A DNA stretch of 44,762 nt from contig DAOUFH010000147.1 in assembly GCA_034429955.1 (NCBI GenBank), positions 1 through 44,762 on the forward strand, read 5' to 3'. Position numbers and translations under genes: made by a program. This document shows positions 8,981 to 43,022 of the stretch, one piece after another. Every line of letters starts with the position of its first letter. Position 1 is the first letter of the stretch. Below the pieces are notes generated by a model. The model saw only the letters and a list, made by a program, of their open reading frames with translations, searched no databases and was not told the origin of the DNA. The stretch comes from Dehalococcoidales bacterium (GTDB lineage Bacteria; Chloroflexota; Dehalococcoidia; Dehalococcoidales; UBA3254).

Positions 8981-9013
8981 GTAAGCTGAAGAATTTAAAA
9001 TCAGGCCGGAAAT

Positions 9014-11752: not shown

Positions 11753-11924
11753 AGCCTTTGATACGCCGCTCCAGCACCGTGCGCTCCAGCATAACGGCAT
11801 GCTGGCACTTCAGGCATTTCAACCCGATATCGGCACCCAGGCGGGTAACTACCCAGGCGTTGCTCCCGCAGGGGTGGGCCTTCTTCAAACGCAGAATATC
11901 ACCCAGTTTGAGTTCAGTTGGCAT
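11733..11924 (-). CDS. DUF951-family small protein
   Basis: 63 aa. GDILRLKKAHPCGSNAWVVTRLGADIGLKCLKCQHAVMLER matches the DUF951 pattern with C..C pairs. Confidence 0.65.
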   Translation of the reverse strand: MPTELKLGDILRLKKAHPCGSNAWVVTRLGADIGLKCLKCQHAVMLERTVLERRIKGFIARGD

Positions 11925-12020
11925 AAGGTGTAGTTGTTAGTCTTTCGTTGTTCGCTATTCGTTTCGAGATCAGGCGTACAGGTCTGTCTGAAATAGAGGG
12001 AGGATAGTAATGAGAAATAT

Positions 12021-12039
12021 TCCCCTTATCAAAGGGGGA
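12021..12039. repeat. CCCCTT...AAGGGG hairpin module (second copy)
   Basis: See 10395-10414. Confidence 0.45.
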
Positions 12040-12070
12040 CAGTATTGCTGAAAGCTGTCAGCTTTTAGTA

Positions 12071-12109
12071 GCCCCTCTCCCCCGGATGCTTCAACCTCGC
12101 CTTTCGAAA
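12071..12109 (-). repeat. Intergenic repeat, 'GAAGCATCCGG' module (reverse orientation)
   Basis: The reverse complement tttcgaaaggcgaggttgaagcatccgggggagagggg aligns with 32931-32980, 37499-37548 and 43208-43254. Confidence 0.55.
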
Positions 12110-12196
12110 CTAGATACCAACAACGAAGAACCAAGAACTCCTTTCCTCTCTTATTGAATCACTGGTACTTATGTGTGGAATCGGTAGTATTGTTTA

Positions 12197-13009: not shown

Positions 13010-13225
13010 ATTCGCCTCCTATTAGAATCAGGTGCCTGCTGGCCAGGCCGGTCTTCCTTGAAATAATGCTACACGCTTACCGGTAGTATAATGCGGCTCT
13101 ATCCGTAATAAAAGACGGACGGCAGGTCAGATGTAATAATAACATATTAACCACCCGGGTGCTTCAAATGATAGAATTAATGAAGGTATCCTGCCGCGAT
13201 AATATGACAGCAAGGACTGTAACTT

Positions 13226-14554
13226 ATGAACTATACTGAGGCCATTAATTACGTTTATCAATTTACCAACTATGAAGCGGTGCCGCGTCCGCACGCCGAA
13301 GATAACTATGACTTGCGCAGAGTATTTGAAATTCTGGAACGCCTGGGCAATCCGCATTTGCAAGCCCGCTCGCTGCATATCACAGGCACCAACGGCAAGG
13401 GCAGCACAGCGGTGATGCTGGCCTCAGTGCTGACTGCAGCCGGATACCGCACCGGCCTGTATACTTCGCCTCACCTGATAACCTCGCGGGAACGTTTCAT
13501 GATCGACGGCCGGATGATTAGCGAAGAGGAACTGGCCGCTATCGTGACCCGGCTCAAACCGCATATCGAAGAGGTCAACCGTAAGGCCACCTACGGTAAG
13601 CTGACGGTTTTCGAGATATTGACAGTTCTGGCTTTTGCCTTTTTTGCCGAAAAGCAGGTGGAATTTCAGGTGATGGAAGTGGGTATGGGTGGCCGTTATG
13701 ACGCCACCAATGTGCTGAAACCCGAGATCTGCTTTTTAACCAGCATCAGCTACGACCACTGCGATATCCTGGGCGATACCTTAACCAAAATCGCCACGGA
13801 AAAATGCGGCATCATCAAACCCGGCTGTACCGTCATCTCACATCCGCAGGCTGACGAGGCGGCTGCGGTCATCCGGCAGGACTGCGCCGGGAAACAGGTG
13901 AAGCTTATCAAAGTGGGCGAGGATGTCACGCGGCGCAGTATCAGTTTTAACCATGACCGGCAGGAGATCTCCATCCGGGGGAGAATGGGCGAATATCAGG
14001 TGTCCATTCAATTGCTGGGACAATACCAGATGGACAATGCCGCCGCAGCTGTTGCCGGGCTGGAAGTATTAATGGAAAACGGCTGCCGGATTACTCCCGA
14101 AAATATCCGGCTGGGTCTGCGTTCTGCTGCTTTGCCCGGCCGTATGAACATCGTGCAACGTGATCCGGTTATCTTGATGGATGGAGGGCATAATCCGGGA
14201 GCGGCCCGCAATTTAAAGGAGGCTGTGCTGGAGTATTTCCCCTCTGCCAGGCGGATACTGGTGACGGGCATGGCAGCCGATAAAGATACGGCGGGTATAG
14301 CGGCCGAACTGGCGCCGATATTCGATACTGTGATAGTCACCCGCGCCCACAGCCAAAGAGCAGCCGGGACGGACTATCTGGCCTCTTTGTTTTCAAAATA
14401 CAGAGACAATGTGATCCTTTCGGCAGATGTAGCGCAAGCCCTGACAACAGCTTTACAACAGGCTGCTAAGGCTGACCTGATCGTGGTAACCGGGTCTCTT
14501 TACGTGGTCGGCGAGGCCAAGGAGTACCTGGAAGGGTACAAAGGCAACCATTAG
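13226..14554 (+). CDS. folC: Folylpolyglutamate synthase/dihydrofolate synthase
   Basis: HITGTNGKGST P-loop, ..EVGMGGRYDATN.., ..DGGHNP.. Mur-ligase family motifs. Length is 442 aa. Confidence 0.9.
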   Translation: MNYTEAINYVYQFTNYEAVPRPHAEDNYDLRRVFEILERLGNPHLQARSLHITGTNGKGSTAVMLASVLTAAGYRTGLYTSPHLITSRERFMIDGRMISEEELAAIVTRLKPHIEEVNRKATYGKLTVFEILTVLAFAFFAEKQVEFQVMEVGMGGRYDATNVLKPEICFLTSISYDHCDILGDTLTKIATEKCGIIKPGCTVISHPQADEAAAVIRQDCAGKQVKLIKVGEDVTRRSISFNHDRQEISIRGRMGEYQVSIQLLGQYQMDNAAAAVAGLEVLMENGCRITPENIRLGLRSAALPGRMNIVQRDPVILMDGGHNPGAARNLKEAVLEYFPSARRILVTGMAADKDTAGIAAELAPIFDTVIVTRAHSQRAAGTDYLASLFSKYRDNVILSADVAQALTTALQQAAKADLIVVTGSLYVVGEAKEYLEGYKGNH

Positions 14555-14651
14555 CCGTAAGCTCTTAAAGCATGGCCTAATAACCCTTACCGCAGGTCTG
14601 CCGCGGGCGAGAACATACTATCACCTGAAGTCAGTTCACAGGCGTCCGGCG

Positions 14652-14918
14652 CTAGGGTGCGCTGGTAACGTAAGGATTGCTCTGTACTTCTTTGGGCAGC
14701 ATGGTTCCGAGGATACGTTCCATGGCCATAGTATGTGAACACATCTTCCAGGTTTCGAAGAAGCTGCAGGTGCACTGCCACTTGCCGTCTTTTAAACTGG
14801 TGACGTAATCGTTGTGTTCGCCGTGAAAATTGACTTTAAATTCGGAGAAGGTAATTCTATCGGTCTCCTGAGCATAACGCTTGGCTTTCTCAATTTTACC
14901 TATCAAGCTTGACTGCAT
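14652..14918 (-). CDS. SWIM-type zinc-finger small protein
   Basis: CTCSFFETWKMCSH fits CxCx(n)CxH. A strong RBS GGGGAGGT lies 7 nt upstream of ATG 14918. Confidence 0.55.
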   Translation of the reverse strand: MQSSLIGKIEKAKRYAQETDRITFSEFKVNFHGEHNDYVTSLKDGKWQCTCSFFETWKMCSHTMAMERILGTMLPKEVQSNPYVTSAP

Positions 14919-14942
14919 CTTTTTACCTCCCCATATTAATTA

Positions 14943-14976
14943 AAAAGCACCACGCTGTTACTAGCGCAGTGCTTTT
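14943..14976 (-). terminator. Terminator-like hairpin plus T5 immediately upstream of the SWIM gene RBS
   Basis: On the minus strand, AAAAGCACtgCGCTagtaacAGCGtgGTGCTTTT is followed by Taattaat. No minus-strand gene lies upstream of it. Confidence 0.5.
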
Positions 14977-15189
14977 ACTTTCAGTTCTTGAATTTGGACT
15001 TCCATAGCGGTATGTACCCCTTCACTCAAGTACTTATAATTATAACTCAACCTGTCGTATATGTCCAATTGAAATCAGTCAATCCTGCAGTTTTTAAAAG
15101 CCTGAGGGAATAGTCGAAATCTGTAATTTTCACAATGAGAATCAGGTTGAAAATTAATCGTAAAAGGCGACTTTTTTCTTAATCGCATA

Positions 15190-15218
15190 TTGACCGATTT
15201 GGATGCTTGTTGTATGAT
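15190..15218 (+). promoter_or_regulatory. Sigma-70-like promoter for hppA (TTGACC-17-TATGAT)
   Basis: Read directly. It lies about 130 nt upstream of the hppA ATG. Confidence 0.45.
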
Positions 15219-15349
15219 AATGCTGGTTTTATGCGGCTGAATTACAACAGTTCGGTAAACATAACATCCGCAACTCCCGGCGAGTGGTGGATGTCCTGAC
15301 TAGAGCGGGTAAATCCAATAATAATAAAAGGAATAAATAAGGAGGGAAA

Positions 15350-17563
15350 ATGCCTGGTATTTTTTGGTTGGTCCCAGCAGCTTGCGTTGTGACGATCATC
15401 TTTGCCATCTGGCTGGTTATCAGCACTCTCAAGCGCAGCACGGGAACCCCGGAAATGAAGAAAGTAGGCGACATGATTTATGAAGGCGCCTGGGCTTTCT
15501 TGAAGCGGCAATACGGAACTATCGGTCTGATTTCCGTAATAGTCGCAATCATCATCTCAGTGGTTGTCGGTGTCCTGCATGGAGAGAAGGGACTCAACAT
15601 GTTTGATACCACAGTTACTATCACTGCCCTTGGTTTCGCCTGGAGGACGGGCGTGGCCTTCCTGGTAGGTGCAATCTGCTCCGGCGTAGCCGGATTTATC
15701 GGCATGATTATTGCCGTTAAATCCAATGTACGCTGTGCGGCTGCTTCCCAGAAGAGTTTGAACGAGGCTGTTCAGACCGCTCTGCGCGGTGCGGCTGTTC
15801 CCGGTTTCCTGATTGTTGTTTTAAGCCTGATTGGCGTTACTGTCATCTACTTCGCCTTTGGCGGACATTCTCACCCGGCGGTAGCCCCCCATTTAATTCT
15901 CGGCTTCGGTTTCGGAGCCAGCTTCGTGGCCCTGTTTGCCCAGCTTGGCGGCGGTATTTATACCAAAGCTGCCGATATGGGTGCCGACCTGGTGGGTAAA
16001 GTCGAAGCCGGTATTCCGGAAGACGACCCCCGTAATGCGGCCGTCATCGCCGACCTGGTCGGTGATAATGTAGGTGACTGCGCCGGCCGTGGTGCCGACC
16101 TGTTCGAATCAACAGCTGCCGAGAACATCGGTGCTATGGTACTGGGTATCGCATTGTATGTGGCTACCACTCAGGTGGAGTGGATTTTGTTCCCGCTGGT
16201 GGTCCGTGCATTCGGTCTTATCGCCAGCATGATCGGTATCCTCTGCGTACGTATTCGCGGTAATGAAAATCCTATGACCGCTTTGAACCGCGGCTATTTT
16301 GTCTCAGTGATAATCAGTGCCGTCGGTATGATTTTAACCGTGTGGCTAATGCTGGATTCAGCTCCCGGTGGTTGGGGCTGGTTAGCCGGTGCCGGCCTGG
16401 TCGGTATTGTAGCCTCCGTCGTGATTGTATTCGTGACTCAGTATTATACTGAAGGCAGATACCGCCCGGTTAAATCCATCGTGGAAGCCTCCAAGACCGG
16501 TCCTGCTACCAACATAGTAATGGGTGTGGCCGTAGGCTTCGAAAGCACTCTGCTGACATCTCTTATTATCGGCATCTCTTTGCTGGCTTCATACTGGATG
16601 GGCACTCAGGCTCTGGCTGGAGTTACCGGTCTGGCTCCCATGGCAGCCGGCGCTTTCGGTACTGCTATTGCCACTATGGGCATGCTGATGACCTGTGCCT
16701 TTGTTTTAACTGAAGATACCTTCGGTCCTATCACCGATAATGCCAACGGCGTTAATGAGTTCGCTCATGCCGGTCCTGAAGTCAGAAGAATTACTGACAG
16801 ACTGGACGCGGTCGGTAATACTACCAAAGCTTTGACCAAGGGTTATGCTATGGTTTCTGCCGGTCTGGCAGCCTTCCTGCTCTTCCAGGCTTATCTGGAG
16901 AGAGTCTCCGTTTTGCGTAACGTAGTAGACCCGGTTACCGGTCATATGCAGATCTTCGATTCAGTCAACCTGGTGCAGCCGGATGTGTTTGTCGGCGCTT
17001 TACTGGCCGCTATGCTGGTCTACTTCTTCTGCTCCCTGGCTATCCGTGCCGTCTCCAAGACTGCTACCAAAATTATTGAAGAGGTCCGCAGACAGTTCCA
17101 TGAGAAGCCCGGTATCATGCAGGGGACGGAAAAACCGGACTATGCCCGCGCTGTGGATATCACCGCCCGCGCTGCTCTGAGAGGCATGATTGCCCCCGGT
17201 CTGTTGCCTGTTCTGGCCCCCATCGTAATCGGTTTGATTTTCCGCTGGATTCCGGTCGAAGGCTATGATGCGGCTATGGTTGTGGCGGCTTTTTTGATGG
17301 TGGGTACCATCGGAGGTATTCTGATGGCTTCCTTTATGAACAACGGCGGTGGCGCCTGGGATAATGCCAAGAAGTATATCGAAGATAATCAGCTTAAAGA
17401 TGCTGACGGTAAAGTTCTGGGCAAAGGTTCCGAGGCTCACAAGGCCGCAGTGGTCGGCGATACCGTCGGCGACCCCTTCAAAGATACTGCGGGTCCTTCC
17501 GTTCACGTTCTGGTCAAATTGCTGGCTACTATTACCCTGGTTATGGCCCCCCTGTTCGTCTAG
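15350..17563 (+). CDS. hppA: Membrane-bound proton-translocating pyrophosphatase, K+-independent signature
   Basis: 737 aa and multi-TM. Motifs include GGGIYTKAADMGADLVGK, DNVGDCAGRGADLFES and DTVGDPFKDT. GNTTKA (Lys rather than Ala) is the published K+-independence determinant. Confidence 0.95.
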   Translation: MPGIFWLVPAACVVTIIFAIWLVISTLKRSTGTPEMKKVGDMIYEGAWAFLKRQYGTIGLISVIVAIIISVVVGVLHGEKGLNMFDTTVTITALGFAWRTGVAFLVGAICSGVAGFIGMIIAVKSNVRCAAASQKSLNEAVQTALRGAAVPGFLIVVLSLIGVTVIYFAFGGHSHPAVAPHLILGFGFGASFVALFAQLGGGIYTKAADMGADLVGKVEAGIPEDDPRNAAVIADLVGDNVGDCAGRGADLFESTAAENIGAMVLGIALYVATTQVEWILFPLVVRAFGLIASMIGILCVRIRGNENPMTALNRGYFVSVIISAVGMILTVWLMLDSAPGGWGWLAGAGLVGIVASVVIVFVTQYYTEGRYRPVKSIVEASKTGPATNIVMGVAVGFESTLLTSLIIGISLLASYWMGTQALAGVTGLAPMAAGAFGTAIATMGMLMTCAFVLTEDTFGPITDNANGVNEFAHAGPEVRRITDRLDAVGNTTKALTKGYAMVSAGLAAFLLFQAYLERVSVLRNVVDPVTGHMQIFDSVNLVQPDVFVGALLAAMLVYFFCSLAIRAVSKTATKIIEEVRRQFHEKPGIMQGTEKPDYARAVDITARAALRGMIAPGLLPVLAPIVIGLIFRWIPVEGYDAAMVVAAFLMVGTIGGILMASFMNNGGGAWDNAKKYIEDNQLKDADGKVLGKGSEAHKAAVVGDTVGDPFKDTAGPSVHVLVKLLATITLVMAPLFV

Positions 17564-17580
17564 AACGGTTAGTTAGACTA

Positions 17581-17614
17581 AAAAAGCCCTGCACAAAAGT
17601 GCAGGGCTTTTTGT
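17581..17614 (+). terminator. Rho-independent terminator of hppA
   Basis: agccctgcac-aaaa-gtgcagggct followed by tttttg. Confidence 0.85.
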
Positions 17615-17645
17615 TATAACTTATTTTAATAATTCGGGGGAAATA

Positions 17646-17677
17646 CCCGATATGAGTTAACTCATATCGGGCTTTTT
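17646..17677 (+). terminator. Second hairpin plus T-run
   Basis: cccgatatgag-ttaa-ctcatatcggg followed by cttttt. Confidence 0.5.
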
Positions 17678-17775
17678 CATTTGTAGCCGGACTGTTTTCA
17701 GGAATATTTCTTTTTGACACAAGAAATACAAAAGGATTCTGTATATTATTAATTAAAGAGACAAAGGAAGGGTCC

Positions 17776-18453
17776 ATGGATTACAAAATATTAATAGTCG
17801 AAGATGAACCAAAACTGCGTGAAGTATTATGTGATTACTTTAGCAGCAAGAGGGATAGCGCTTTTTCTGCCTCCAACGGAATCCAGGCCCTTGAACTTAT
17901 TGGAGAAAATGAGTTTGATGCCGTTTTACTGGATATTATGATGCCCGAACTGGATGGTTATACCGTCTGCAGGGCAGTGAGAAAACACAGCGAGGTGCCG
18001 ATAGTATTTTTAACAGCTCTTTCCGCTGAGGAAGACAAGTTGTACGGCTATGAACTGGGTGCGGATGATTATGTGACCAAACCGTTTTCCCTGTCTGTGC
18101 TTTACGCCAAAATAACGGCTTTGATTAAACGTAATCGCGGAAATATTCTCACTGATGGGAAAATCACTGTTGGAGGGATATCTATTGAGCCTTTATCTCA
18201 TAAAGTGTATCTGGATAAAAAGGAATTGGCTTTAACCCCCAAGGAATATGACCTGCTTTATTGCCTGATACGTAACAAGAATGTGGTTATGAGCAGGGAG
18301 CAGTTATTGGTGAAGTGCTGGGGCTACGATTATGAGGGCGATTCACGCGCTGTTGATACCCATATCAAACGCTTGAGAGAGAAACTGGGCGGCCATGCGG
18401 ACTGCATTAAAACAGTAATAAAAGCCGGTTATAAACTGGAGGAATCTAAATGA
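17776..18453 (+). CDS. OmpR/PhoB-family response regulator
   Basis: Receiver domain (..ILIVEDE.., ..LLDIMMP.., ..KPF..) plus a winged-helix domain (..LTPKEYDLL.., ..VDTHIKRLREKL..). Confidence 0.9.
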   Translation: MDYKILIVEDEPKLREVLCDYFSSKRDSAFSASNGIQALELIGENEFDAVLLDIMMPELDGYTVCRAVRKHSEVPIVFLTALSAEEDKLYGYELGADDYVTKPFSLSVLYAKITALIKRNRGNILTDGKITVGGISIEPLSHKVYLDKKELALTPKEYDLLYCLIRNKNVVMSREQLLVKCWGYDYEGDSRAVDTHIKRLREKLGGHADCIKTVIKAGYKLEESK

Positions 18454-21729: not shown

Positions 21730-21866
21730 TTCTACGGACTCCTTGAATTTGATATCCTCATTTTAACACAATGAACAGGAGACCAGTGAGAGCGCCTACT
21801 ATACATTGATGAAAAATTTCAGAAAGGTTATATTGAATTAAGTCTATTCTGCTGTTGAGGTTATCA

Positions 21867-22874
21867 ATGACTGAAAGAACGAAAAAAGCAAAAACTATCA
21901 AGACCTCCAAAAGTCGTAAAACGTCTTCTAAAAAAGTAATCGGAAATTCAGTTGTCTTTGAATCGAATCTAAATCCTATAGAGTTTTATGTTTCTGAAAC
22001 TCAAACAAAATTCCAAACAGAAAAACCGTATACGGTTTTTTATGATGATCCTGATCATTCCGTGAGATTGATTCAGGGTGATTGTATCAAAATATTAAAT
22101 CAAGCTCGGACGGAATCAGTGGATATGATTTTTGCGGATCCGCCCTATTTTCTATCAAATGGTGGGATAACCTGTCATGCAGGGAAAATGGTATCGGTTA
22201 ATAAGGGGGAGTGGGATAAATCGAAAGGCACTCAGGAAAACCATGCTTTTATCATGGAGTGGTTAAAAGCTTGCAAACGTGTACTAAAGCCTAATGGGAC
22301 TATATGGGTTTCAGGAACAACGCATATCATATATTCGATTGGTTACGCTATGCAGGAATTGGATTTTAAGATTCTGAATGACATCGTCTGGTACAAGCGG
22401 AATGCGGCACCTAATCTTTCGTGTCGCTATTTCACTCATTCGACAGAGATTGTGTTATGGGCAGCTAAAGATAAAAATAGTCATCATTATTTCGATTATC
22501 CCAGTATGAAAGCGGAGAACAACGGGAAACAAATGAGAAATTTATGGGATATTGGGGAGATGGAGTCTGAAAAACAAACCGATAATGTATGGGAAATATC
22601 AACCCCCAAATCGGCTGAGAAAGTGTTCGGTAAACATCCAACTCAAAAACCTCTGGAATTATTGAGAAGAATTATCATAGCTTCAACTAAAGAAGGTGAT
22701 CTGGTACTGGATCCGTTTTGCGGCAGTTCGACAACAGGCGTTGAAGCGGTATTACTGAACAGAAAATATGTTGGCATGGACCTGGATGCCGAATATTTGG
22801 AGTTATCTAAAAAACGTTTGGAACAGGTAATCCAAAGATTATCATATCAAGTGAAGAAGGAATTGCCGGTTTAG
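21867..22874 (+). CDS. Beta-class N6-adenine (GATC) DNA methyltransferase, DpnA (M2.DpnII)-like
   Basis: SVDMIFADPPYFLSNGG...VSVNKGEWDK...LKPNGTIWVSGT...APNLSCRYFTHSTE...GKHPTQKP...DPFCGSSTTG is collinear with DpnA as I recall it. ATG 21867 follows GAGG. Confidence 0.88.
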   Translation: MTERTKKAKTIKTSKSRKTSSKKVIGNSVVFESNLNPIEFYVSETQTKFQTEKPYTVFYDDPDHSVRLIQGDCIKILNQARTESVDMIFADPPYFLSNGGITCHAGKMVSVNKGEWDKSKGTQENHAFIMEWLKACKRVLKPNGTIWVSGTTHIIYSIGYAMQELDFKILNDIVWYKRNAAPNLSCRYFTHSTEIVLWAAKDKNSHHYFDYPSMKAENNGKQMRNLWDIGEMESEKQTDNVWEISTPKSAEKVFGKHPTQKPLELLRRIIIASTKEGDLVLDPFCGSSTTGVEAVLLNRKYVGMDLDAEYLELSKKRLEQVIQRLSYQVKKELPV

Positions 22875-22890
22875 TTACAGGATAGATAAA

Positions 22891-23517
22891 TTGGAACGCA
22901 AAGAAGCACTGAAGAAAATTCAGCAGATTATTGGTCATGATCTGAGAATACTGGCCTGCCAGTATGAAATTACCGTCTTTAAGGAAGGGAAAAAGAATAA
23001 AGGCTGGGCGGGACATGTTATTGAAAGATATCTCGGTCTGCCTATGAATTCATCCAGATCGCCCAATTTTGGGTCTTGGGAATTAAAGACTATTTCGTTG
23101 AAACGTCTCTCCAACGGTATGTTTACTATTAAGGAAACTATGGCTATAACCATGATTGATGAATATCACGTTAGAAGAAATGATTTTGAACATAGTCACT
23201 TGTTAACAAAACTACAAAAACAAGTAATCGTAGCCAGAATCTGGAATAACCAACAGGAAAGCTCATCTGTTTTGTTCGGGGTAAAAGAATTTGATTTAAG
23301 TGATCCTGTTATATATAAACAAATTAAAGATGATTATGACTTGGTCAGGAACACCATAATTAATAACGGATACACAGCTTTATCCGGAAAAATGGGTGTA
23401 TTTATTCAACCGAGAACTAAAGGCCCGGGACATGGCAGTACATCAAGGGCCTTTTATGCAAGAACGTCGTTTCTTAAAAATTTACTGTTATTTGATACAG
23501 AATCCGCTACCTCTTAA
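22891..23517 (+). CDS. MutH/Sau3AI-family (GATC-specific PD-(D/E)XK) protein
   Basis: NKGWAGHVIERYLGL....SPNFGSWELKT parallels MutH KGWIGVLLEIWLGA...EQDFAALGVELKT. The size is MutH-like. The start is TTG. Confidence 0.7.
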   Translation: MERKEALKKIQQIIGHDLRILACQYEITVFKEGKKNKGWAGHVIERYLGLPMNSSRSPNFGSWELKTISLKRLSNGMFTIKETMAITMIDEYHVRRNDFEHSHLLTKLQKQVIVARIWNNQQESSSVLFGVKEFDLSDPVIYKQIKDDYDLVRNTIINNGYTALSGKMGVFIQPRTKGPGHGSTSRAFYARTSFLKNLLLFDTESATS

Positions 23518-23794
23518 GTAAATCTATTCGAGTATCTGCCTTATGCCATCCATAAGCATTTTTCTTCCTGAATAGTTCCAATCTCTGATATCTTGTTCAA
23601 TAAATAGCCACTTAATGATTTTCAGAACCAATGATATTACGCTTACCTACACCCATTTTCCAAAAGGTGCGGCTTCATAAGCTTTCGGGGGGCGGTTTCG
23701 GTGATTCTGGTATTGATACGAGAGAACCGTTATAGGGCTTCATCAAATGGCATAGGCAGAAAAGGCAGTTCTCTGATTGATTCAGGCTTTTTTC

Positions 23795-24199
23795 TCATAT
23801 CTTAACCCTTTTGAATACCTGTAATTCAATCGAACGAGGGATCTTACCGGTATTATTATAGTTTTCATAACCTCTGGGTGAAGTAAGTACAATTGAATCA
23901 TAGTCCATAGCAATAGCAATACGCATTATTTTAGCATCCAATGCGAAACGGTCTTTGACGCTTATATTTTGGCTGGATAGAGGTAAATTAAGGGTACGCA
24001 TAATGCTAGGTTCATCCCCGAACAAAGGATTTATGACGCTCACATCAAAGGGGATATCTATAGGTCTACCATAAAATTCAGCATCTCGATATGAGCTTGC
24101 GAAAAATACACCTCTAGCTTTTATTGCTTTTCGGTCTGGTAATGCGGTCCGCCACCATTTATGAGAATTGATATAGGATACAAGTTTTGCATTATTCAT
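23795..24199 (-). CDS. Hypothetical protein (134 aa), translationally coupled to the upstream zinc-ribbon ORF
   Basis: 8-nt ATGAATAA overlap with 24192-24629. I recognise no motif. Confidence 0.45.
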   Translation of the reverse strand: MNNAKLVSYINSHKWWRTALPDRKAIKARGVFFASSYRDAEFYGRPIDIPFDVSVINPLFGDEPSIMRTLNLPLSSQNISVKDRFALDAKIMRIAIAMDYDSIVLTSPRGYENYNNTGKIPRSIELQVFKRVKI

Positions 24200-24629
24200 T
24201 GGATATCAACCCCTTATAGGTTAATCTTCCAGTGCAATCGCATGGAGCATCGAAAGCCTGAGTCTTGGTAGCTTCTTTTAGTCGATGTTTCATAAACCAT
24301 GCGGTTTTCTGAGTGACACCGATATATTTCCCTAACTGGACTGAGGAAATCCCCTTTTTGTGAGTAGTAATGAGGTAAATAGCCATAAACCACTTTTGCA
24401 GGGTTATATGGCTATTTTCAAAAATTGTGCCAACCTTAATGCTGAATTTCTGTCTGCAATCACCGCATTTGTGAATCCGTTTATTTTTAAAATGATAAAT
24501 TCTGGTGCTACCACAATAAGGGCAAAACTGTTTCTCATGCCAGCGAACTTCGGTTAAGTAATCAATGTAAGATTGTTCATCGGGGAATCTTTTGAGCAAC
24601 TCAGCTAGAGATTCAAATTGGGGTAACAT
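24192..24629 (-). CDS. IS1595-family transposase N-terminal zinc-ribbon/HTH domain only (no DDE domain)
   Basis: ..RWHEKQFCPYCGSTR...HKCGDCRQKFSIKVGTIFENSHITLQKWFMAIYLI...ISSVQLGKYIGVTQKTAWFMKHRL.. matches the Zn_Tnp_IS1595 pattern. The ORF ends where the DDE core should begin. Confidence 0.7.
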   Translation of the reverse strand: MLPQFESLAELLKRFPDEQSYIDYLTEVRWHEKQFCPYCGSTRIYHFKNKRIHKCGDCRQKFSIKVGTIFENSHITLQKWFMAIYLITTHKKGISSVQLGKYIGVTQKTAWFMKHRLKEATKTQAFDAPCDCTGRLTYKGLISNE

Positions 24630-24805
24630 ACTTCATATTATTATTACAACAAGTGGGTCTGTCAAGTATATAATTACCAAAAATAATAGTATTTACATAT
24701 TCTGTGGTTTATACATGATATTGATAGCTGGATGAGCTTTCTTCTTTTTTGAGGTCATCCAAAATCGTACACTCCTAAAACTCATACTAGATATATAAGT
24801 TCTTG

Positions 24806-25717
24806 TTACTGTTGAATGATTTTTTCTAGAACTCCAGACCTCAACATATCTACATTGATAATATATTGAATGTATTCGGCTCCAACTTTTAGAGGGTTAT
24901 TCATAGATCTCCATCCTTGCCCATCTGTTAGCCAGACGAATTTCCACCCTGCGGAAGCTAAAACCTGACTCCTGTTTATATAAGAGGGTACAATCTCTGA
25001 AGGTTTTGATCCTGTACCTCCGAAAAAATTGACTTCAATATTAAGTCCCTTATTATCCTTAATAAGGAGGTTGTCTGCTATTTTTTCTTTTAGATCATTC
25101 GGAATATTTATTCCAAGATTTGCTTTTATATACTTAAATTTTTTCTGTTGAAATAATTGAATACTTGGATCTTCATTTATGATTTCATTTATTTTTTCCG
25201 TTACCATTTTTTCCAAGAAGAATCCACTTCGATTTTTCCGTGCATTAGAATCTAGCCCAACTTCCACACCTAACAAATAATCTAAAGGTGAATCCATAGA
25301 ACATAGTTCTTTTAATAAACCGGTTTTTTCTACAAATAATGTAATCTCTTCGATTTCGCTATTAGTGAAATTTTGTTTACTAAAATTGAAAACTTTGTAC
25401 TTGATACAGGGCTTGATTTTATCAAGGACCTGTATTAAGCCATCTCTGCAAGCTATAAGGATAGGAAATACCTTTACTACTTCTGGATATCTCTTAATTA
25501 ATTCCGAAAGATCTTTCTTGGGCGAATTACCCATTTTCAAACTGCTTAGCAGTGATAACTCATATTTGAATATATCTCGATTTTTGATTACCTTTTGCCA
25601 ATTTACGAAAAAATCATATGTGTGATTGGTGTCAATAAGAGAGTCACAAATTCTCTGACATAATTCTTCATCTGTATTAATATTTAAATATTTTTTGTAA
25701 AAACCTTTGTTTATCAT
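24806..25717 (-). CDS. Type II restriction endonuclease, DpnII/MboI family (GATC)
   Basis: ..YPEVVKVFPILIACRD.., GVEVGLDSNARKNRSG, EVNFFGGTGSKPSE and WLTDGQGW are collinear with DpnII (DpnB) as I recall it. Confidence 0.88.
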   Translation of the reverse strand: MINKGFYKKYLNINTDEELCQRICDSLIDTNHTYDFFVNWQKVIKNRDIFKYELSLLSSLKMGNSPKKDLSELIKRYPEVVKVFPILIACRDGLIQVLDKIKPCIKYKVFNFSKQNFTNSEIEEITLFVEKTGLLKELCSMDSPLDYLLGVEVGLDSNARKNRSGFFLEKMVTEKINEIINEDPSIQLFQQKKFKYIKANLGINIPNDLKEKIADNLLIKDNKGLNIEVNFFGGTGSKPSEIVPSYINRSQVLASAGWKFVWLTDGQGWRSMNNPLKVGAEYIQYIINVDMLRSGVLEKIIQQ

Positions 25718-25969
25718 AAAATATATCCTTTAAAATCAGTTGTACTGATTTTAATTTTATTAGCCGGTAATTACAAGCCTCATTAAGGATATTTATAATA
25801 GCATAACAGAGGTTAGATCTGTGAATCATCATAACTGTCATAAACTTCACATTGAAAAGCTAAAGGTGTAATATTGTGATAGTCCCCTCATGGATATTTT
25901 AGCTTTGGCTGAAGTATTTGTGAAACGTGAATACAGATTCAAAAATGCTGACAAGGAGCTTGGAGACAC

Positions 25970-28198
25970 ATGGAAAAAGGCAGAAAAGTAGTAAAAACTA
26001 CAGCCTGGTCACCAGGATGCGGTTCCCACGGCGGCTGCGGCTTCAAATTGGAAGTCCAGAATGGGAAAATCGTCAAGGTGGAAGGCGACGAGTGTCATCC
26101 CTGGAACCAGGGAAGAGTCTGTCCCAAAGGACTGGCTCTGACACAGTATCTCTATCATCCCGATAGAATCCGTCATCCCATGAAGAGAGTGGGAGCCCGC
26201 GGTGAAAACAAATGGGAGCAAATCACCTGGGAAGAAGCTTTCGATATTTGTGAGAAAAGATTAAAAGAAATCCGCGACAAATACGGCGCCGAATCCGTAA
26301 TCTTCGGCCAGGGTACCGGACGCGATATCGGCGGCCCTATCACCTATTTGTGTTTTGCTTACGGCAGCCCCAACTGGGTACAGATCGGTCTGGCCGGACA
26401 TTCCTGCTATACCCCCAGATTGGGCGCCATGTTCGCCACCAACGGCGATTACACTATGGCTGACTGCTCCCAATTCCTGGAGAAGCGTTACAAAGATCCC
26501 CAGTGGCAGAGACCCAATGTCATCATCAACTGGGCTCAGAATCCGGTCAACGGCTGTTTTGACGGCTTCTTCGGTCACTGGATTGTGGACTGCATGAAAC
26601 GCGGTTCCAAACTGATCGTTATCGACCCCAGAGTAACCTGGCTGGCTTCCCGGGCCGAGATTCACCTGCAGAACAGACCCGGCACCGACGGAGCCATCGC
26701 CATGGGTATGCTGAACGTTATCATCAACGAAGGCCTGTATGACAAAGAGTTCGTAGACAAGTGGTGCTACGGCTTCGATAAACTGAAAGAAAGAGTCCAG
26801 GAGTATCCTCCGGAAAAAATGGCTGCAGCCGCCTGGATTAAGACTGAAGACCTGGTTAAAGCGGCCCGTCTTTATGCCAGGAGCACTCCTTCCGCTATTC
26901 ACTGGGGCGTTCCCATTGACGGCAATCCCCAGGGTTCTGTGGTAGCTCAGGCTATCGCCCAGCTCTGGTCCATCACCGGTAATGTCGATGTGCCCGGCGG
27001 CAATGTTATCGCCCGCGGCGCTTACGGCGTGACTACCTATCCTTTCAGTTCCAAGGAAATCAGTGACCTCTATGGTGAGGAACTGGTTAAAAAGATGAAT
27101 GAAAAGAGAATCGGCTGCGACCGCTATCCCATGGTCAAAGGTTTCCGTGGCTGGGGTCAGCCCGATGTTCTTCTGGAGCAGCTCAAGACCGGCCAACCGT
27201 ACAAGATTCACGGCGCCTGGATTCAGACTTCCAATCCTATCGGCGGACAGGCCGGTGATCCCAGAGCCCATTATGAAGCCATGAAAGACCTGGATTTCGT
27301 CGTGGTGGTTGATACCTTCCTCAATCCCACCAGCGTAGGTCTGGCTGATATCTTCCTGCCGGCGGCTGCTCTGGGTGAAAAAGAGAGCTTCCGCAACTGG
27401 TGGTGGCCTCTGACCTCCATAGCCAAAGCGGTTGATTCAGGCGATACCAAGAGCGACTGGGAAATCAACCTGGAAATGGCCAAGAGACTGGCGACCAAAC
27501 CCACTCAGTTTGAAACTGTTAAAGATTTGATTAACGATAGATTGAAACCGGCCGGCATCACCTATGATGAGCTGTGCAAACGCGGCAGCTGGATTTGTCC
27601 CAAAGACGGTCCGACCGTTCCCTATCGCCGCTATGAAAGAGGTCTGCTCAGAGCCGACGGTAAACCCGGTTTCAATACACCCACCGGCAAAATCGAGCTT
27701 TACTCCACCCGTTATGAAGACTGGCAGCTGGATCCCCTGCCTTACTTCCAGGAAGCTTCCGAAAGCCCGGTTTCAACGCCCGAATTATGGGAAAAATATC
27801 CGCTTATCTTTGCCAGCGGACGCCGCATGCCGGTCTTCTTCCATTCCGAACACCGCATGATTCCCTGGCTGAGGGAGATCGTTCCGGACCCGGTAATTGA
27901 AATTAATCCGCAGACTGCCCAAGAATACGGCATCGTAGACGGCGAATGGGTTATTGCTGAAAATAACCATGGCAGCGCTAAATTCAAAGCTCAGATTACT
28001 CCTACCGCTCATCCCAAGATCGTCTCAGTCGGTCACGGCTGGTGGATTCCGGAAGCCAAACCGGAAAATCCCGGCCTGTTCGATAACTGGGAACATAACT
28101 GTAACCAGCTGGTACCGATGGGCACCCAGAGTAAATCAGGTTTTGGCGGCGGCGCCTATAAGACCAGCCTTTGCCGTCTGGTAAAAATTAAAAATTAA
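25970..28198 (+). CDS. Cytoplasmic Mo/W-bis-PGD (DMSO reductase superfamily) catalytic subunit, acetylene-hydratase-like clade
   Basis: There is no twin-arginine signal. The N-terminal Cys set is C17-x5-C23...C42...C51. Long collinear stretches match Pelobacter acetylene hydratase as I recall it (GMLNVIINEGLYDKEFVDKWCYGFDKLKERVQEYP; PTGKIELYS...DPLPYF; EYPLI..). Confidence 0.85.
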   Translation: MEKGRKVVKTTAWSPGCGSHGGCGFKLEVQNGKIVKVEGDECHPWNQGRVCPKGLALTQYLYHPDRIRHPMKRVGARGENKWEQITWEEAFDICEKRLKEIRDKYGAESVIFGQGTGRDIGGPITYLCFAYGSPNWVQIGLAGHSCYTPRLGAMFATNGDYTMADCSQFLEKRYKDPQWQRPNVIINWAQNPVNGCFDGFFGHWIVDCMKRGSKLIVIDPRVTWLASRAEIHLQNRPGTDGAIAMGMLNVIINEGLYDKEFVDKWCYGFDKLKERVQEYPPEKMAAAAWIKTEDLVKAARLYARSTPSAIHWGVPIDGNPQGSVVAQAIAQLWSITGNVDVPGGNVIARGAYGVTTYPFSSKEISDLYGEELVKKMNEKRIGCDRYPMVKGFRGWGQPDVLLEQLKTGQPYKIHGAWIQTSNPIGGQAGDPRAHYEAMKDLDFVVVVDTFLNPTSVGLADIFLPAAALGEKESFRNWWWPLTSIAKAVDSGDTKSDWEINLEMAKRLATKPTQFETVKDLINDRLKPAGITYDELCKRGSWICPKDGPTVPYRRYERGLLRADGKPGFNTPTGKIELYSTRYEDWQLDPLPYFQEASESPVSTPELWEKYPLIFASGRRMPVFFHSEHRMIPWLREIVPDPVIEINPQTAQEYGIVDGEWVIAENNHGSAKFKAQITPTAHPKIVSVGHGWWIPEAKPENPGLFDNWEHNCNQLVPMGTQSKSGFGGGAYKTSLCRLVKIKN

Positions 28199-28211
28199 GG
28201 AAGGAAGCAAG

Positions 28212-28544
28212 ATGCCGAAGAAAGCATTACTGATAGATTACCAATTTTGCACCGGCTGCCATTCCTGTGAGGTAGCCTGCAAGCAGGAGCACGGATATCC
28301 GGTCGGCAAGGGCGGCATTCATATGAATGAAATCATTACCACCCTGCCTGACGAGAGACTGCGGATCGACTATATTCCCTTCCCTACCGCGTATTGTGAC
28401 CTGTGCGCCGCCCGTACTCGCAAAGGCGAGCAGCCGGCCTGTGTCAAACATTGTCAGGCCCAGGTGATGGAATACGGTCTGGTGACCGACCTGGCTAAAA
28501 AGATGGACAAGAAATCGCACTGTGTAATGTTCACGCCCAGATAG
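28212..28544 (+). CDS. Small 4Fe-4S ferredoxin-type subunit (two cluster motifs)
   Basis: CTGCHSCEVAC plus CDLC...C...C. The gene starts 13 nt after the catalytic subunit stop. Confidence 0.8.
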   Translation: MPKKALLIDYQFCTGCHSCEVACKQEHGYPVGKGGIHMNEIITTLPDERLRIDYIPFPTAYCDLCAARTRKGEQPACVKHCQAQVMEYGLVTDLAKKMDKKSHCVMFTPR

Positions 28545-28581
28545 GGGTAAGAGTGAGTTTTAAGTTATAAGTTTAAAAGTG

Positions 28582-28616
28582 AGCAGGGAGCAATTATAAT
28601 TGCTCCCTGCTTTTTA
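28582..28616. terminator. Terminator after the Mo-enzyme operon
   Basis: agcagggagcaatt-at-aattgctccctgct followed by tttttat. Confidence 0.8.
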
Positions 28617-28629
28617 TAGCCTTACCTGA

Positions 28630-29541
28630 CTATTTGATGTTAATCTGGCGGACCGGCCGGGCTTCGATATAGCCGCGGTAGCCCATGGGGGCCAACTGGA
28701 AGCGCGGTCCGTCTTCATCGGCCCATTCGAAACCGTAGATACGCGGGTCGTACTTCTTCATCACTTCCCATAAATCCGAAATGGCCTGTTCGAATTTGGC
28801 GTCGTCATAAGGCTGTCCCTGGAAGACCATCATCTTGCAGGCCGGCAGGGTGATCAGGGTATAACCTTCCGGCACGGGGCCGTTATAATCTACAGGCATC
28901 TCTACTCCCTGGGCATAGCTCGATGTCCCGGGTTCCACCATATTCGGGGGCAGCCACATGCCGATGGGCTCATAGAGAGCGTCTTTAATCCGGCTGAGCT
29001 CATCCCAGACCTCGCAGCCGACTTCTTCGCAGTATTCAAAGTAATGAGTGGCCTTTTGGCCTCTTTTCAGAATTAGTTTACGCTGTGGCCGGTCTACCAC
29101 CTGGACAAAAACTGTATTGGTATTTGATTTCTGTGTCATTTCAAATTCTCCTTTTTGTTGCTTGAGGTAGTACCTGGAAGCCGGGACCGGCTGGAAGAGG
29201 CTGATAGCCGGCTGCTCTTTCAGGTAGCGGTAGGGACTGATGCCGAACTGGCGAGAGAAAGCCCTGGTAAAGCCTTCGTGCGATTCAAAGACGAAGTCGA
29301 AAGCTACGTCCACTACCCGGGTATACCCAGCTCGCAGCTTCAACGCTGCTCTGGTTAGCCTCAAAGTCCGGATGTATTCGAACGGGGTTTTACCGGTGAA
29401 CTCTTTAAATATCCTGGCAGCGTGCCAGGGAGAGTATCCGGCTGCTTGCGCAAGCATATACAGGCTGATTGGTTCAGTCAGATGCTTTTCGATGCAGTCC
29501 TGCATGCGTTGGACTGCCATAATTGTTTCCCAGCTTTCCAT
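28630..29541 (-). CDS. AraC/XylS-family regulator with a C-terminal GyrI-like effector-binding domain (Rob-like)
   Basis: The N-terminal double HTH is ..LAQAAGYSPWHAARIFKEFTGKTPFEYIRTLRL...GFESHEGFTRAFSRQFGISP... It is followed by a domain of about 170 aa. Confidence 0.85.
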   Translation of the reverse strand: MESWETIMAVQRMQDCIEKHLTEPISLYMLAQAAGYSPWHAARIFKEFTGKTPFEYIRTLRLTRAALKLRAGYTRVVDVAFDFVFESHEGFTRAFSRQFGISPYRYLKEQPAISLFQPVPASRYYLKQQKGEFEMTQKSNTNTVFVQVVDRPQRKLILKRGQKATHYFEYCEEVGCEVWDELSRIKDALYEPIGMWLPPNMVEPGTSSYAQGVEMPVDYNGPVPEGYTLITLPACKMMVFQGQPYDDAKFEQAISDLWEVMKKYDPRIYGFEWADEDGPRFQLAPMGYRGYIEARPVRQINIK

Positions 29542-36040: not shown

Positions 36041-37285
36041 CTAATACTTGCCGAATTCGCGGGTAGCTTCTACCCAGGCTTTAACCAGTTCAGGGCGGGA
36101 GCCTGACATCTCACCCACACCGGTACACATGATAAAGCCGCCACCTTTGCCTACCGTTTCGCATACTATTTTAGTGTGTTCCCGTACTTTCTCAATCGTG
36201 CCGGATACCAGAAGTGAATTCGGCATGCCGCCGATAATGCACATAATAGAACCGAGCATTTCTTTGACCTTGAAGATATCGCTGGTGTGGAACCAGCCGG
36301 CCGTTTTACCGGGGGGTAATTCAGCCAGATAACTCAGGCGTTTGTCCCAGTTGCCTTCATAAAAAATATAGGGGGTAATGTCATTTTCAATAAGCGTTAA
36401 AATGACCTTTTTGAGCTGAGGCCAATAGAACTTTTCAAATTGAGGCAGCGACATGAAGCCGTCTGAACCACGATGCAGCGGAATAAAACAGGTTTTAGTG
36501 CCAGTCGTACGGCGTATGTTGATGGCGTTTTTCAACTGCAACCGGGATACCTTTTCCTCAGCGGCCAGGAGCTGCTCCGGACGCCGGTAGAGATCGAGCA
36601 TAATCCCCCGCATCCCGCGTAAAGTATCAGACATGAAATCAAAGGGTGCGGTGACCTGCATCGAACTGACCACAAAACCTGAAGAAAAACCCAGGTCAGC
36701 CGTTCTCCGGATGTTCCGCGCCATTAGCGCGATATCTTCGGCGGCTGCCTGGGCAGCTTTAGCAAGGGTTTGAAAAGTCTCGGCAAGAGCAGGAATATTC
36801 AGTGTCCCCAGGCCTAAAACACTGTAGGAACCATTCAGAAAAAGGCCCAGGGGCTGTAATAACGACAATCCCTCCAGACCGGCGAACACACGCGGCAGAT
36901 AGACCCTCACCGCCCAATCAGCCGGGTCTTCGAGGAACTCGTCATAGTCCTCAGCTTGCATAAATTCTTTTTCATTGAATTGATATTCAGAGTTTGGACT
37001 GGAACCATGCCCCGGGAAAGTTGTCATGCGGTCACCCAGAAGCAGATGGGGTTTGGGGTCGGGCGGAAAAAGACCGAAGATAGCGTCCGGCTGAAACTCC
37101 ACGGCTGCCTTTTCCAGCAGTTCCTGGGCTTTTTCGGTATCATCGTGCAATTCCTGGCGGGATATCCCGCCAATGTCAGCCAGCATATAACTCATCGGCA
37201 GTATAATCGGGATGCAATCCGGTTGTCTTAGCTGGATGGCAGTCTGGATGCGGTTATCCCGTTCTAGAAACATCTTATCTGACAT
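36041..37285 (-). CDS. Uroporphyrinogen-decarboxylase (URO-D) superfamily protein, paralog 1
   Basis: 414 aa. It shares long motifs with 41706-43022 (EYQF.E.EFMQ..., YLPRV, FD..S..LRGM.G.M.D.YRRP..LL, IPL.RG...FMS..QF..FYWP.LKK, G.GGGFI). It lacks the HemE RQAGR N-terminal motif. Confidence 0.75.
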   Translation of the reverse strand: MSDKMFLERDNRIQTAIQLRQPDCIPIILPMSYMLADIGGISRQELHDDTEKAQELLEKAAVEFQPDAIFGLFPPDPKPHLLLGDRMTTFPGHGSSPNSEYQFNEKEFMQAEDYDEFLEDPADWAVRVYLPRVFAGLEGLSLLQPLGLFLNGSYSVLGLGTLNIPALAETFQTLAKAAQAAAEDIALMARNIRRTADLGFSSGFVVSSMQVTAPFDFMSDTLRGMRGIMLDLYRRPEQLLAAEEKVSRLQLKNAINIRRTTGTKTCFIPLHRGSDGFMSLPQFEKFYWPQLKKVILTLIENDITPYIFYEGNWDKRLSYLAELPPGKTAGWFHTSDIFKVKEMLGSIMCIIGGMPNSLLVSGTIEKVREHTKIVCETVGKGGGFIMCTGVGEMSGSRPELVKAWVEATREFGKY

Positions 37286-41705: not shown

Positions 41706-43022
41706 ATGGATTTTCCGACTTCGGCAGAGCAATACAACCGGGAGAACCTTGAACTCAAAGCTCAGATTGAAAAACGGACAGGTAAAACCACTGAACAATT
41801 ATATGCGGAAAGGGAGAAACTGGTCAGAGACGCTATAGACCTGAAAGAACCCGAGAGGATCCCCTTTTCGGTTAATATCGATGCTCCGGCTTATTGCGGA
41901 GTCTCCAATTCAGCCGCTTATTATGACCCTCTGAGCTGGAAGGCTGCCATGCGCTGCATAACACTGGACCTTGAACCTGATATCGCCAATGCCGGTCTGC
42001 CCACTTCCGGTTCCGCCATGGAATTGCTGGACGTCAAGAACAAGCTGTGGCCGGGTGGAAATTTGCCTCCCAGTTACGAGTACCAGTTTGTCGAAGGTGA
42101 GTTTATGCAGGAAGATGAATATGACATGTTCATCTCCGATCCTACCGGCTTTATGCTGCGCCGTTATCTGCCCCGTGTTTACGGTGCGATGACACCGCTG
42201 GCCAAACTGCCGACATTGGATTCAATCTACCTGGGCTTCGAAGGCCTGAGCTCACTTTTCGCCAGTCCGGAGTTCGTGGAAATGGCGACCAGGGTGGCCG
42301 AGGCCGGCCGTAAAACCGCTGAATACCGCCAGGTCGTGGGAGATTCCTATGAAGAGCTGGCCCAGCTGGGTTTTCCCGGACTGGGTTCACCCAATGCGGT
42401 AGGTGTGGGCGGCGCGCCCTTCGATACCCTTTCCAGTTTCCTGCGGGGTATGAAAGGCTCGATGGTGGATATGTACCGCCGTCCGGCAAAACTGCTGCAA
42501 GCCTGCGAACTGATATTGGAACGCCGCATTGCCGTGGCTGAACCGGCCGATCCGAAACAAAGAGGGAATCCCAAGAGAATCGGTATTCCGCTCTGGCGCG
42601 GCGATAAAGCTTTTATGTCCGATGCCCAGTTTAAACGTTTCTACTGGCCGGGTTTGAAAAAAGCCCTGCAGGCCGATATCGATCTGGGTTTTGTGCCCAT
42701 GCCTTTCTTTGAGGCGGAGTTCGGCGACCGCCTGGAATGCCTGCTGGAACTGCCCAAAGGCAAAGTGCTGGCTTCGGTGGAGTATATGGATGCGGCGAAA
42801 GCCAGGGCAATCTTGAAGGGGCATGCCTGTGTGATGGTGCGTTGTCCTCCTCTTTCATCCAGGGTCTGGTCTCTGTCTGAGGTCGAGAGCTATGTCAAGG
42901 ATGTTATCGATAAGTACGGCCGGGGTGGAGGCTTTATACTCAATGTCCGGATTCCCGACAAAGGCACCCCGGCGGAGAAACAGGCTATGGTTAAGGCAAT
43001 CAGGGATTACGCGAGAAGATAG
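41706..43022 (+). CDS. Uroporphyrinogen-decarboxylase (URO-D) superfamily protein, paralog 2
   Basis: 438 aa with an AGGAGGG RBS. See 36041-37285 for the shared motifs. Confidence 0.75.
   Translation: MDFPTSAEQYNRENLELKAQIEKRTGKTTEQLYAEREKLVRDAIDLKEPERIPFSVNIDAPAYCGVSNSAAYYDPLSWKAAMRCITLDLEPDIANAGLPTSGSAMELLDVKNKLWPGGNLPPSYEYQFVEGEFMQEDEYDMFISDPTGFMLRRYLPRVYGAMTPLAKLPTLDSIYLGFEGLSSLFASPEFVEMATRVAEAGRKTAEYRQVVGDSYEELAQLGFPGLGSPNAVGVGGAPFDTLSSFLRGMKGSMVDMYRRPAKLLQACELILERRIAVAEPADPKQRGNPKRIGIPLWRGDKAFMSDAQFKRFYWPGLKKALQADIDLGFVPMPFFEAEFGDRLECLLELPKGKVLASVEYMDAAKARAILKGHACVMVRCPPLSSRVWSLSEVESYVKDVIDKYGRGGGFILNVRIPDKGTPAEKQAMVKAIRDYARR

Follow-up and report, generated by a model that had tools for sequence, protein, structure and literature searches.

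The contig DAOUFH010000147.1 of a Dehalococcoidales bacterium (GenBank assembly GCA_034429955.1) raises the question of which reaction is performed by a putative molybdenum or tungsten enzyme that resembles acetylene hydratase (AH) and is encoded together with a small ferredoxin. The window, i.e., the whole stretch of 44,762 nucleotides that was analyzed, carries the gene of the large subunit (alpha, 742 aa) at 25970–28198 on the plus strand and, 13 nt 3' of it, the gene of the small subunit (beta, 110 aa) at 28212–28544 on the same strand. Together, alpha and beta most likely function as a soluble cytoplasmic reductive dehydroxylase of a polyhydroxylated aromatic compound, belonging to the class described for Gordonibacter; the probability of this predicted activity is estimated at about 0.6. 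The aromatic substrate class would follow from the characterized relatives, from the gene clusters in which orthologs of 57–64% identity are found, and from the polyphenol-degrading gene content of the organism's own genome.

Domain Organization and Cysteine Signature of the Large Subunit

The Pfam domains Molybdop_Fe4S4 (PF04879, residues 21–63), Molybdopterin (PF00384, residues 66–505), and Molydop_binding (PF01568, residues 615–715) follow one another in alpha, all above the cut-offs. This succession of domains places the protein in the dimethyl sulfoxide (DMSO) reductase (MopB) superfamily, as a predicted Mo/W enzyme with a bis(molybdopterin guanine dinucleotide) (bis-MGD) cofactor. Alpha has no twin-arginine motif, and its conserved core starts at W13, in agreement with the first-pass annotation, which had found no twin-arginine translocation (Tat) signal.

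The FS0 motif of AH is built of four cysteines (C9, C12, C16, and C46), whereas the query family keeps three. The cysteines of alpha lie at positions 17, 23, 42, and 51, exactly as first read. A comparison of 78 family members gives the motif W13-S14-x-G16-x17-G18-x19-H20-G-G-C23-G ... E-G-D40 ... N-Q-G-R-x-C51, and the conserved cysteines are just C23, C51, and one at position 17 or 19. C42 was considered as a fourth FS0 ligand and rejected, as it occurs in only 5 of the 78 members. In the alignment with AH, Gly16 stands in place of Cys9 and His20 in place of Asp13, and no Asp follows any of the cluster cysteines. The first-pass annotation had missed both the usual FS0 cysteines and the Asp of AH, and a proper alignment confirms that neither is present. 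His occupies position 20 in 76/77 members of the family and in all 28 Cldh-like proteins.

The unusual cysteine spacing had been regarded as atypical. The residues were read correctly; the pattern, however, is not peculiar to this gene but is the hallmark of the Cldh/Dodh class. The query family, Cldh, and Dodh have the signature W-[ST]-x-G-x-G-C-H-x-G-C ... EGD ... NQGR-x-C in common, with the N-termini reading ..MWSGPGCHEGC.. in Cldh and ..VWTGPGCHNGC.. in Dodh (alignment files of PMC7028382). The corresponding region of the query, W-S-P-G-C-G-S-H-G-G-C ... EGD ... NQGRVC, represents the same signature (NQGR-L-C in Cldh and Dodh) with one cysteine shifted by two places. The query belongs to a mainly Dehalococcoidales subclade of nine rows (Shimodaira–Hasegawa-like approximate likelihood ratio test (SH-aLRT) support 97) with Cys at 17 and Ser at 19. 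Within this subclade one FS0 cysteine has moved from position 19 to position 17, which is a small local variant. The shift is coupled with a second substitution: C17/S19 is accompanied by K53-G54 in 34 sequences, x17/C19 by R53 in 41, and mixed combinations were found in two. This coupling suggests that the mobile cysteine and the Lys or Arg after C51 are in contact around FS0.

The probable metal-ligand cysteine, placed earlier in the ..AGHSC.. motif, is C146. It is aligned with Cys141, the tungsten ligand of AH, and is invariant in 104 of 105 sequences. The match rests on pairwise BLAST and phmmer alignments, since the MAFFT multiple alignment misplaced AH Cys141 relative to the query. Active-site tryptophans are kept as well, W204, W312, and W478 corresponding to W179, W293, and W472 of AH.

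Relationship to Catechol Dehydroxylases and Acetylene Hydratase

Alpha shares its fold and domain order with AH of Pelobacter (Syntrophotalea) acetylenicus (2e7z); the two proteins are collinear over about 700 residues, and both are cytoplasmic. Identity to authentic AH amounts to 32% (301 bits; the reference sequence comes from a Desulfuromonadales genome and was verified against 2e7z at 1718 bits), versus 42% over 737 aa (570 bits) to the Cldh-type protein P0137. The latter (799 aa) was used as a stand-in for Cldh, being identical to Cldh of Gordonibacter pamelaeae over 79 N-terminal residues in the eLife 2020 alignment (PMC7028382); it has a 97%-identical ortholog named from Gordonibacter sp. 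28C. For comparison, the identity between Cldh and Dodh is 45%, a value close to that between the query and Cldh, and the identity between Cldh and AH is 26% (PMC7028382, supplementary file 2c). The designation "acetylene-hydratase-like" given in the first-pass annotation is therefore correct as regards collinearity, but AH is not the nearest characterized relative, as judged from these scores and from the Cldh/Dodh signature.

The phylogeny was reconstructed by maximum likelihood from 65 proteins, assembled without Dodh, Gp Hcdh, and Eadh1/2. In this tree, a Cldh-like clade (28 rows, SH-aLRT 99) forms the sister group of the query family (34 rows, SH-aLRT 98), and AH is found outside the joint clade on a long branch. 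Identity within the query clade is 57–89%, and to the Cldh-like clade 40–49%. Tight clustering with a characterized enzyme, which would have spoken against an atypical protein, was not seen, the nearest characterized enzyme being 42% identical.

In Gordonibacter-type catechol dehydroxylases, the catalytic subunit lacks a Tat signal and is paired with a small 4Fe-4S protein (PMC7028382; PMC11585353; bioRxiv 2025.01.17.632430). The query resembles the members of this type (Cldh, Dodh, Gp Hcdh, and Eadh1/2) as a bis-MGD protein within the range of 740–800 aa that lacks a Tat signal and has a small 4Fe-4S protein encoded next to it. It also shares with Cldh and Dodh the three-cysteine N-terminal signature, the His after the first Cys, and the metal-ligand Cys. 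Unlike them, it belongs to a separate, mostly environmental clade and shows the shift of Cys from 19 to 17 coupled with the change from R53 to K53. Neither a substrate-specific LuxR-type regulator nor a major facilitator superfamily (MFS) transporter, one or both of which accompany the Gordonibacter type, is present beside alpha and beta.

The E. lenta-type enzymes Dadh, Cadh, and Hcdh fall, like the query, within the broader branch of the DMSO reductase superfamily that comprises AH and the catechol dehydroxylases. They differ from the query in having a Tat signal, about 1000–1200 aa, a four-cluster beta subunit, and a membrane anchor, as well as the canonical four-cysteine N-terminal motif (PMC7028382, supplementary file 6).

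Could the protein still hydrate acetylene or some other unsaturated compound without redox chemistry? Of the solved structures, AH matches it best (2e7z, E 8e-87), and the Cys ligand of the metal and several active-site Trp are kept. In AH, Asp13, located next to the cluster ligand Cys12, activates the metal-bound water. This residue is replaced by an invariant His in the query family, and Cys9 is replaced by Gly. AH is a monomer with non-redox chemistry and no electron-transfer partner, whereas alpha is accompanied by a conserved two-cluster beta, and it is closer to Cldh than to AH. Hydratase activity is highly improbable, and membership in AH proper was rejected on the substituted Asp13, the lost four-cysteine FS0, the electron-transfer subunit, and the closer relation to Cldh. 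The redox chemistry proposed earlier is more likely.

The Small Subunit and the Proposed Electron Pathway

Beta was described from the first as a two-cluster ferredoxin of 110 aa. Its eight cysteines form two motifs, C13-x2-C16-x2-C19-x3-C23 and C62-x2-C65-x11-C77-x3-C81, and all eight are invariant in 56/56 relatives; the protein matches the Pfam families Fer4_11 and Fer4_2. Beta subunits of the DmsB/PsrB/FdhB type have four cysteine groups and four Fe-S clusters. Beta matches residues 2–40 and 134–169 of 1h0h_B, i.e., groups I and IV (the first and the last) of FdhB/PsrB-type subunits only, and hence can be regarded as a half-size version of the FdhB-type subunit with two predicted [4Fe-4S] clusters.

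The beta gene lies directly 3' of alpha in at least 51 of the 75 loci with enough downstream sequence, in several phyla; this number is an undercount, since antisense open reading frames (ORFs) displaced some of the beta calls. The complex of alpha, beta, and three 4Fe-4S clusters was modeled with a score of 0.95, the best control giving 0.00. Contacts are reproduced between runs to at least 91%, and the predicted local distance difference test (pLDDT) value of the partner is at least 91. The 0.95 mark is reached by 58 of 80 solved complexes and by 2 of 110 mismatched pairs, a calibration that holds only roughly here because custom alignments and riding ligands were used. The high score may also reflect likeness to solved complexes such as FdhAB and PsrAB. 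In the model, residues 12–25 and 79–84 of beta, which surround its first cluster, face residues 48–52 of alpha around C51, and the predicted interface corresponds to the canonical FS0–FS1 geometry. The absence of a Tat signal, the beta partner, and the lack of any membrane-anchor gene among the neighboring genes of the window bear out the earlier description of a cytoplasmic two-subunit enzyme.

In the proposed mechanism, electrons from a low-potential donor would enter via the two [4Fe-4S] clusters of beta and pass through the three-cysteine FS0 cluster of alpha to the Mo/W centre ligated by Cys146. At this centre, a polyhydroxylated aromatic compound (of the catechol, pyrogallol, or gallate type) would lose one of its hydroxyl groups as water. 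His20, which occupies the place of AH Asp13, is a candidate proton donor.

Tandem duplicates of alpha (two copies of 742–753 aa) with a single downstream beta are found in three loci of metagenome-assembled genomes of Alpha- and Betaproteobacteria (L063, L073, and L075). Such an arrangement suggests substrate diversification with a shared electron-transfer subunit.

Gene Clusters of Related Loci

More than 6800 proteins matched the alpha family. In species-representative genomes, 267 stretches with relatives were found, and all neighborhood counts below refer to the best 80 of these 267 (57–89% identical), whose neighbor genes were clustered and scanned against Pfam. The best 80 relatives belong to Dehalococcoidales, Desulfobacterota, Desulfuromonadales, Bacillota, Acidobacteriota, and Alpha- and Betaproteobacteria. 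Recurrent neighbors are thiolase (22 loci), short-chain dehydrogenase/reductase (SDR, 21), 3-hydroxyacyl-CoA dehydrogenase-family proteins (18), an AthL/BthL-like pair (17), and a tripartite ATP-independent periplasmic (TRAP) transporter (13).

The AthL/BthL-like pair (840 aa + 280 aa) is usually located directly 3' of alpha and beta in the same orientation, and its large subunit matches pyrogallol hydroxytransferase (4v4c_A) with E 1e-263. The transhydroxylase AthL/BthL (4v4c) is, like the query, a cytoplasmic two-subunit bis-MGD enzyme, and it acts on polyhydroxybenzenes. It differs in belonging to another clade, in the Ser ligand of the metal, in the alpha subunit devoid of FS0, and in the three-cluster beta subunit of 274–295 aa; its similarity to the query alpha is weak (28% over short stretches).

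Orthologs of 57–69% identity are situated in phloroglucinol-pathway or transhydroxylase gene clusters. The clearest case is provided by genome G122, whose AthL matches the crystallized enzyme of P. acidigallici with 2050 bits over all 875 residues. Its second locus (L111, G122:C1:673000-692000, positions 1882–17997) holds an alpha of 749 aa (61.5% identical to the query) and a beta of 112 aa. The gene order is LysR, DUF3870 (a domain of unknown function), cyclase, alpha, beta, AthL-like, BthL-like, thiolase, cupin, 3-hydroxyacyl-CoA dehydrogenase, beta-keto acid cleavage enzyme (BKACE), SDR, and TRAP. The phloroglucinol pathway of C. scatologenes is composed of four enzyme families, namely SDR, cyclase, 3-hydroxyacyl-CoA dehydrogenase, and BKACE; as that study noted, the genome of P. 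acidigallici was not yet available (PMC10470551). All four gene types are present in the L111 cluster, which by its gene composition seems to cover the whole route from trihydroxybenzene to acetate and to include two additional molybdoenzymes. The assignments of phloroglucinol reductase (PGR) and dihydrophloroglucinol cyclohydrolase (DPGC) are based on Pfam family and gene order and not on orthology to characterized proteins: a PDB search gave only generic SDR matches for the neighboring SDR and no match for the neighboring cyclase.

In a P. acidigallici-type genome, inside its phloroglucinol cluster, and likewise in several other phyla, alpha and beta stand directly upstream of a transhydroxylase paralog. 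This position leads to the idea that the strongly conserved environmental family represents an unrecognized enzyme of anaerobic trihydroxybenzene metabolism. It could make or remove 1,2,3,5-tetrahydroxybenzene, or dehydroxylate gallate, pyrogallol, or tetrahydroxybenzene into the phloroglucinol pathway. This proposal is a tentative one, and the odds are against it.

The same gene order could be explained by the opposite reaction direction. A water-dependent phenol hydroxylase or dehydrogenase would convert, for example, pyrogallol or phloroglucinol to 1,2,3,5-tetrahydroxybenzene, with electrons leaving via beta to a soluble acceptor. The transhydroxylase reportedly requires tetrahydroxybenzene as a cosubstrate, and we know of no explanation for the cellular source of this compound; orthologs standing immediately upstream of transhydroxylase-like genes would suit such a supply. 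In bis-MGD enzymes the reaction direction is not fixed by the sequence, and resorcinol hydroxylase is an oxidative precedent within the superfamily (PMC10100899). However, the known anaerobic phenol hydroxylases RhL and PgtL are Ser-ligated and belong to another clade (PMC10100899), whereas the query is Cys-ligated, and the characterized members of its nearest clade are all reductive dehydroxylases (PMC7028382; PMC11585353; bioRxiv 2025.01.17.632430). The oxidative direction is thus unlikely, and reductive dehydroxylation is preferred.

Gene Content of the Organism's Own Genome

The genome to which the window belongs (2.33 Mb, about 90% complete) is that of an uncultured Dehalococcoidales, as judged from its nearest relatives, and encodes about nine AthL-like, i.e., pyrogallol-transhydroxylase-like, large-subunit paralogs and four to five Cldh-like paralogs. 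Transhydroxylase-like or phloroglucinol-type genes are found on contigs C15, C35, C194, C168, C7, C38, C37, C242, and C178. On C15, two AthL-like genes stand in tandem with a BthL-like gene, an SDR, a CoA-transferase, and a uroporphyrinogen decarboxylase (URO-D)-like gene, and C178 carries a phloroglucinol-type cluster of cyclase, BKACE, and SDR. Acetylene-hydratase-like and transhydroxylase genes with unknown substrates were noted earlier in sediment Chloroflexi (PMC3971608).

A paralogous pair of the query (L106, G000:C161, 5610–8387, minus strand) consists of an alpha of 811 aa (50–55% identical to the query) and a beta of 113 aa. The pair adjoins an Opp/Dpp-type ATP-binding cassette (ABC) transporter and a CobW-like GTPase.

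URO-D-type methyltransferase-like genes also occur in the genome, and two of them are in the window. These URO-D-family (corrinoid methyltransferase-like) genes lie 7–13 kb downstream of alpha and beta, at 36041–37285 (minus strand) and 41706–43022 (plus strand). Taken together, the URO-D, dehydroxylase-like, and transhydroxylase-like genes fit a lifestyle based on methoxylated aromatics, and by its gene content the organism is a predicted degrader of methoxylated and polyhydroxylated aromatic compounds.

Several points weigh against dehydroxylation of an aromatic compound. There is no assayed enzyme within the family of 57–89% identity, and 42% identity to Cldh fixes neither the substrate nor the reaction direction. 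The groups of the tree were gathered with two different queries, and, with the Gordonibacter enzymes named above absent from it, the sister-clade relation could dissolve with denser sampling. The copy in the window has no catabolic neighbors; it is flanked by a restriction-modification island on one side and by the AraC gene and purF on the other. Paralogs are common, including the tandem copies mentioned above, and substrates probably differ within the family. Finally, three cysteines are on offer for FS0, and they do not decide between a [3Fe-4S] cluster and a [4Fe-4S] cluster with a non-Cys ligand, nor do they settle redox competence.

Some of these points would also suit a reductase or oxidoreductase whose substrate is not aromatic, such as S- or N-oxides, oxyanions of sulfur or arsenic, or a different small molecule; the polyphenol links of the relatives would then be irrelevant here. 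The missing catabolic context of the window copy and the many family paralogs per genome are in line with such a function, as is the NCBIfam scan of alpha, in which the Fdh, PhsA, and DmsA models match sub-threshold only. It is opposed by the 57–69% identity to orthologs inside phloroglucinol and transhydroxylase clusters and by the whole family forming one well-supported clade. Unlike the usual respiratory oxyanion reductases, moreover, the enzyme has neither a membrane anchor nor Tat export. A non-aromatic substrate is quite unlikely, and dehydroxylation of a polyhydroxylated aromatic compound remains the favored reading.

Operon Structure and Flanking Genes

Both plus-strand genes are preceded by Shine-Dalgarno sequences; that of alpha, AAGGAG at 25953–25958 (plus strand), was read from the sequence 11 nt 5' of the start codon. 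Downstream of beta, a perfect 14-bp hairpin (28582–28611) with a 2-nt loop is followed by a T run, the whole element extending over 28582–28615. It was found by eye, as the consensus terminator scan passed over it (the loop being just 2 nt), and is probably an intrinsic terminator for both directions, situated between the beta gene and the regulator gene that converges on it. With these Shine-Dalgarno sites and this hairpin, alpha and beta constitute a self-contained two-gene operon.

Upstream of the operon is a low-GC restriction-modification island, and purF is located downstream. The island (21855–25717, GC 34–38%) encodes an N6/N4 DNA methylase, a MutH/Sau3AI-like protein, an IS1595-type zinc-ribbon fragment, and a DpnII-family endonuclease, and stops 250 bp before alpha. 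In a BLAST comparison, the window becomes similar to the 88%-identical locus L001 only from 21 bp 5' of the alpha start codon onwards.

The gene of a Rob-like AraC-family regulator (303 aa) occupies 28630–29541 on the minus strand. The three ORFs of alpha, beta, and the regulator were all found as first annotated. The N-terminal double helix-turn-helix (HTH) of the regulator is recognized by Pfam (HTH_18, E 2e-20; HTH_AraC). Its C-terminal half matches Cass2 and GyrI-like only sub-threshold (E 0.04–0.11), while among 25 full-length homologs Cass2 is detected in five (best E 2.5e-6) and GyrI-like in two. The AlphaFold2 model (pLDDT 91) matches STM3175 (E 3e-16) and Rob (1d5y_A, E 3e-12), both over the full length, and its C-terminal half matches the GyrI-like domains of SAV2435, EcmrR, BrlR, and SbmC. 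The description as a Rob-like protein with a GyrI-like domain is consequently upheld, by Pfam for the HTH and by homologs and the predicted fold for the C-terminal half.

The regulator had further been called divergent, which is not the case: it is arranged tail-to-tail with the operon. Control of alpha and beta by this regulator upon sensing of an organic ligand, as was implied, could be imagined from the distance of 85 bp between the ends of the regulator and beta genes and from the confirmed GyrI-like effector-binding domain. On the other hand, the gene is convergent and cut off from beta by the strong hairpin terminator, and its promoter side faces purF. None of the 80 related loci has a homolog of the regulator within 6 kb of alpha and beta. 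In L001, where the order alpha-beta-purF is kept, a 205-bp spacer (3447–3651) replaces the 1124-bp segment 28538–29661 with the AraC gene; the segment is a lineage-specific insertion or deletion. A conserved AraC link to alpha and beta was rejected on these two comparisons, and the implied induction by an organic ligand has no comparative support. Regulation of the operon by the AraC protein is accordingly doubtful.

Significance

As regards this window, the analysis yields mainly a corrected annotation. The enzyme class has been published since 2020, and the query is an environmental member of it with the Cys 19-to-17 shift. To our knowledge, Gordonibacter-type dehydroxylases are known only from gut Coriobacteriia. 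The query clade, sister to the Cldh-like one, is much larger and comprises sediment and soil anaerobes of Dehalococcoidales, Desulfobacterota, Bacillota, Acidobacteriota, and Proteobacteria. The three-cysteine FS0 and the His in place of Asp provide testable handles on how an AH-like scaffold is switched between hydration and reductive dehydroxylation.

Since its orthologs occur inside transhydroxylase and phloroglucinol clusters, a missing step in the anaerobic breakdown of tannins and polyphenols has in this family a concrete candidate enzyme. This breakdown is a process that bears on the preservation of carbon in peat and sediments.

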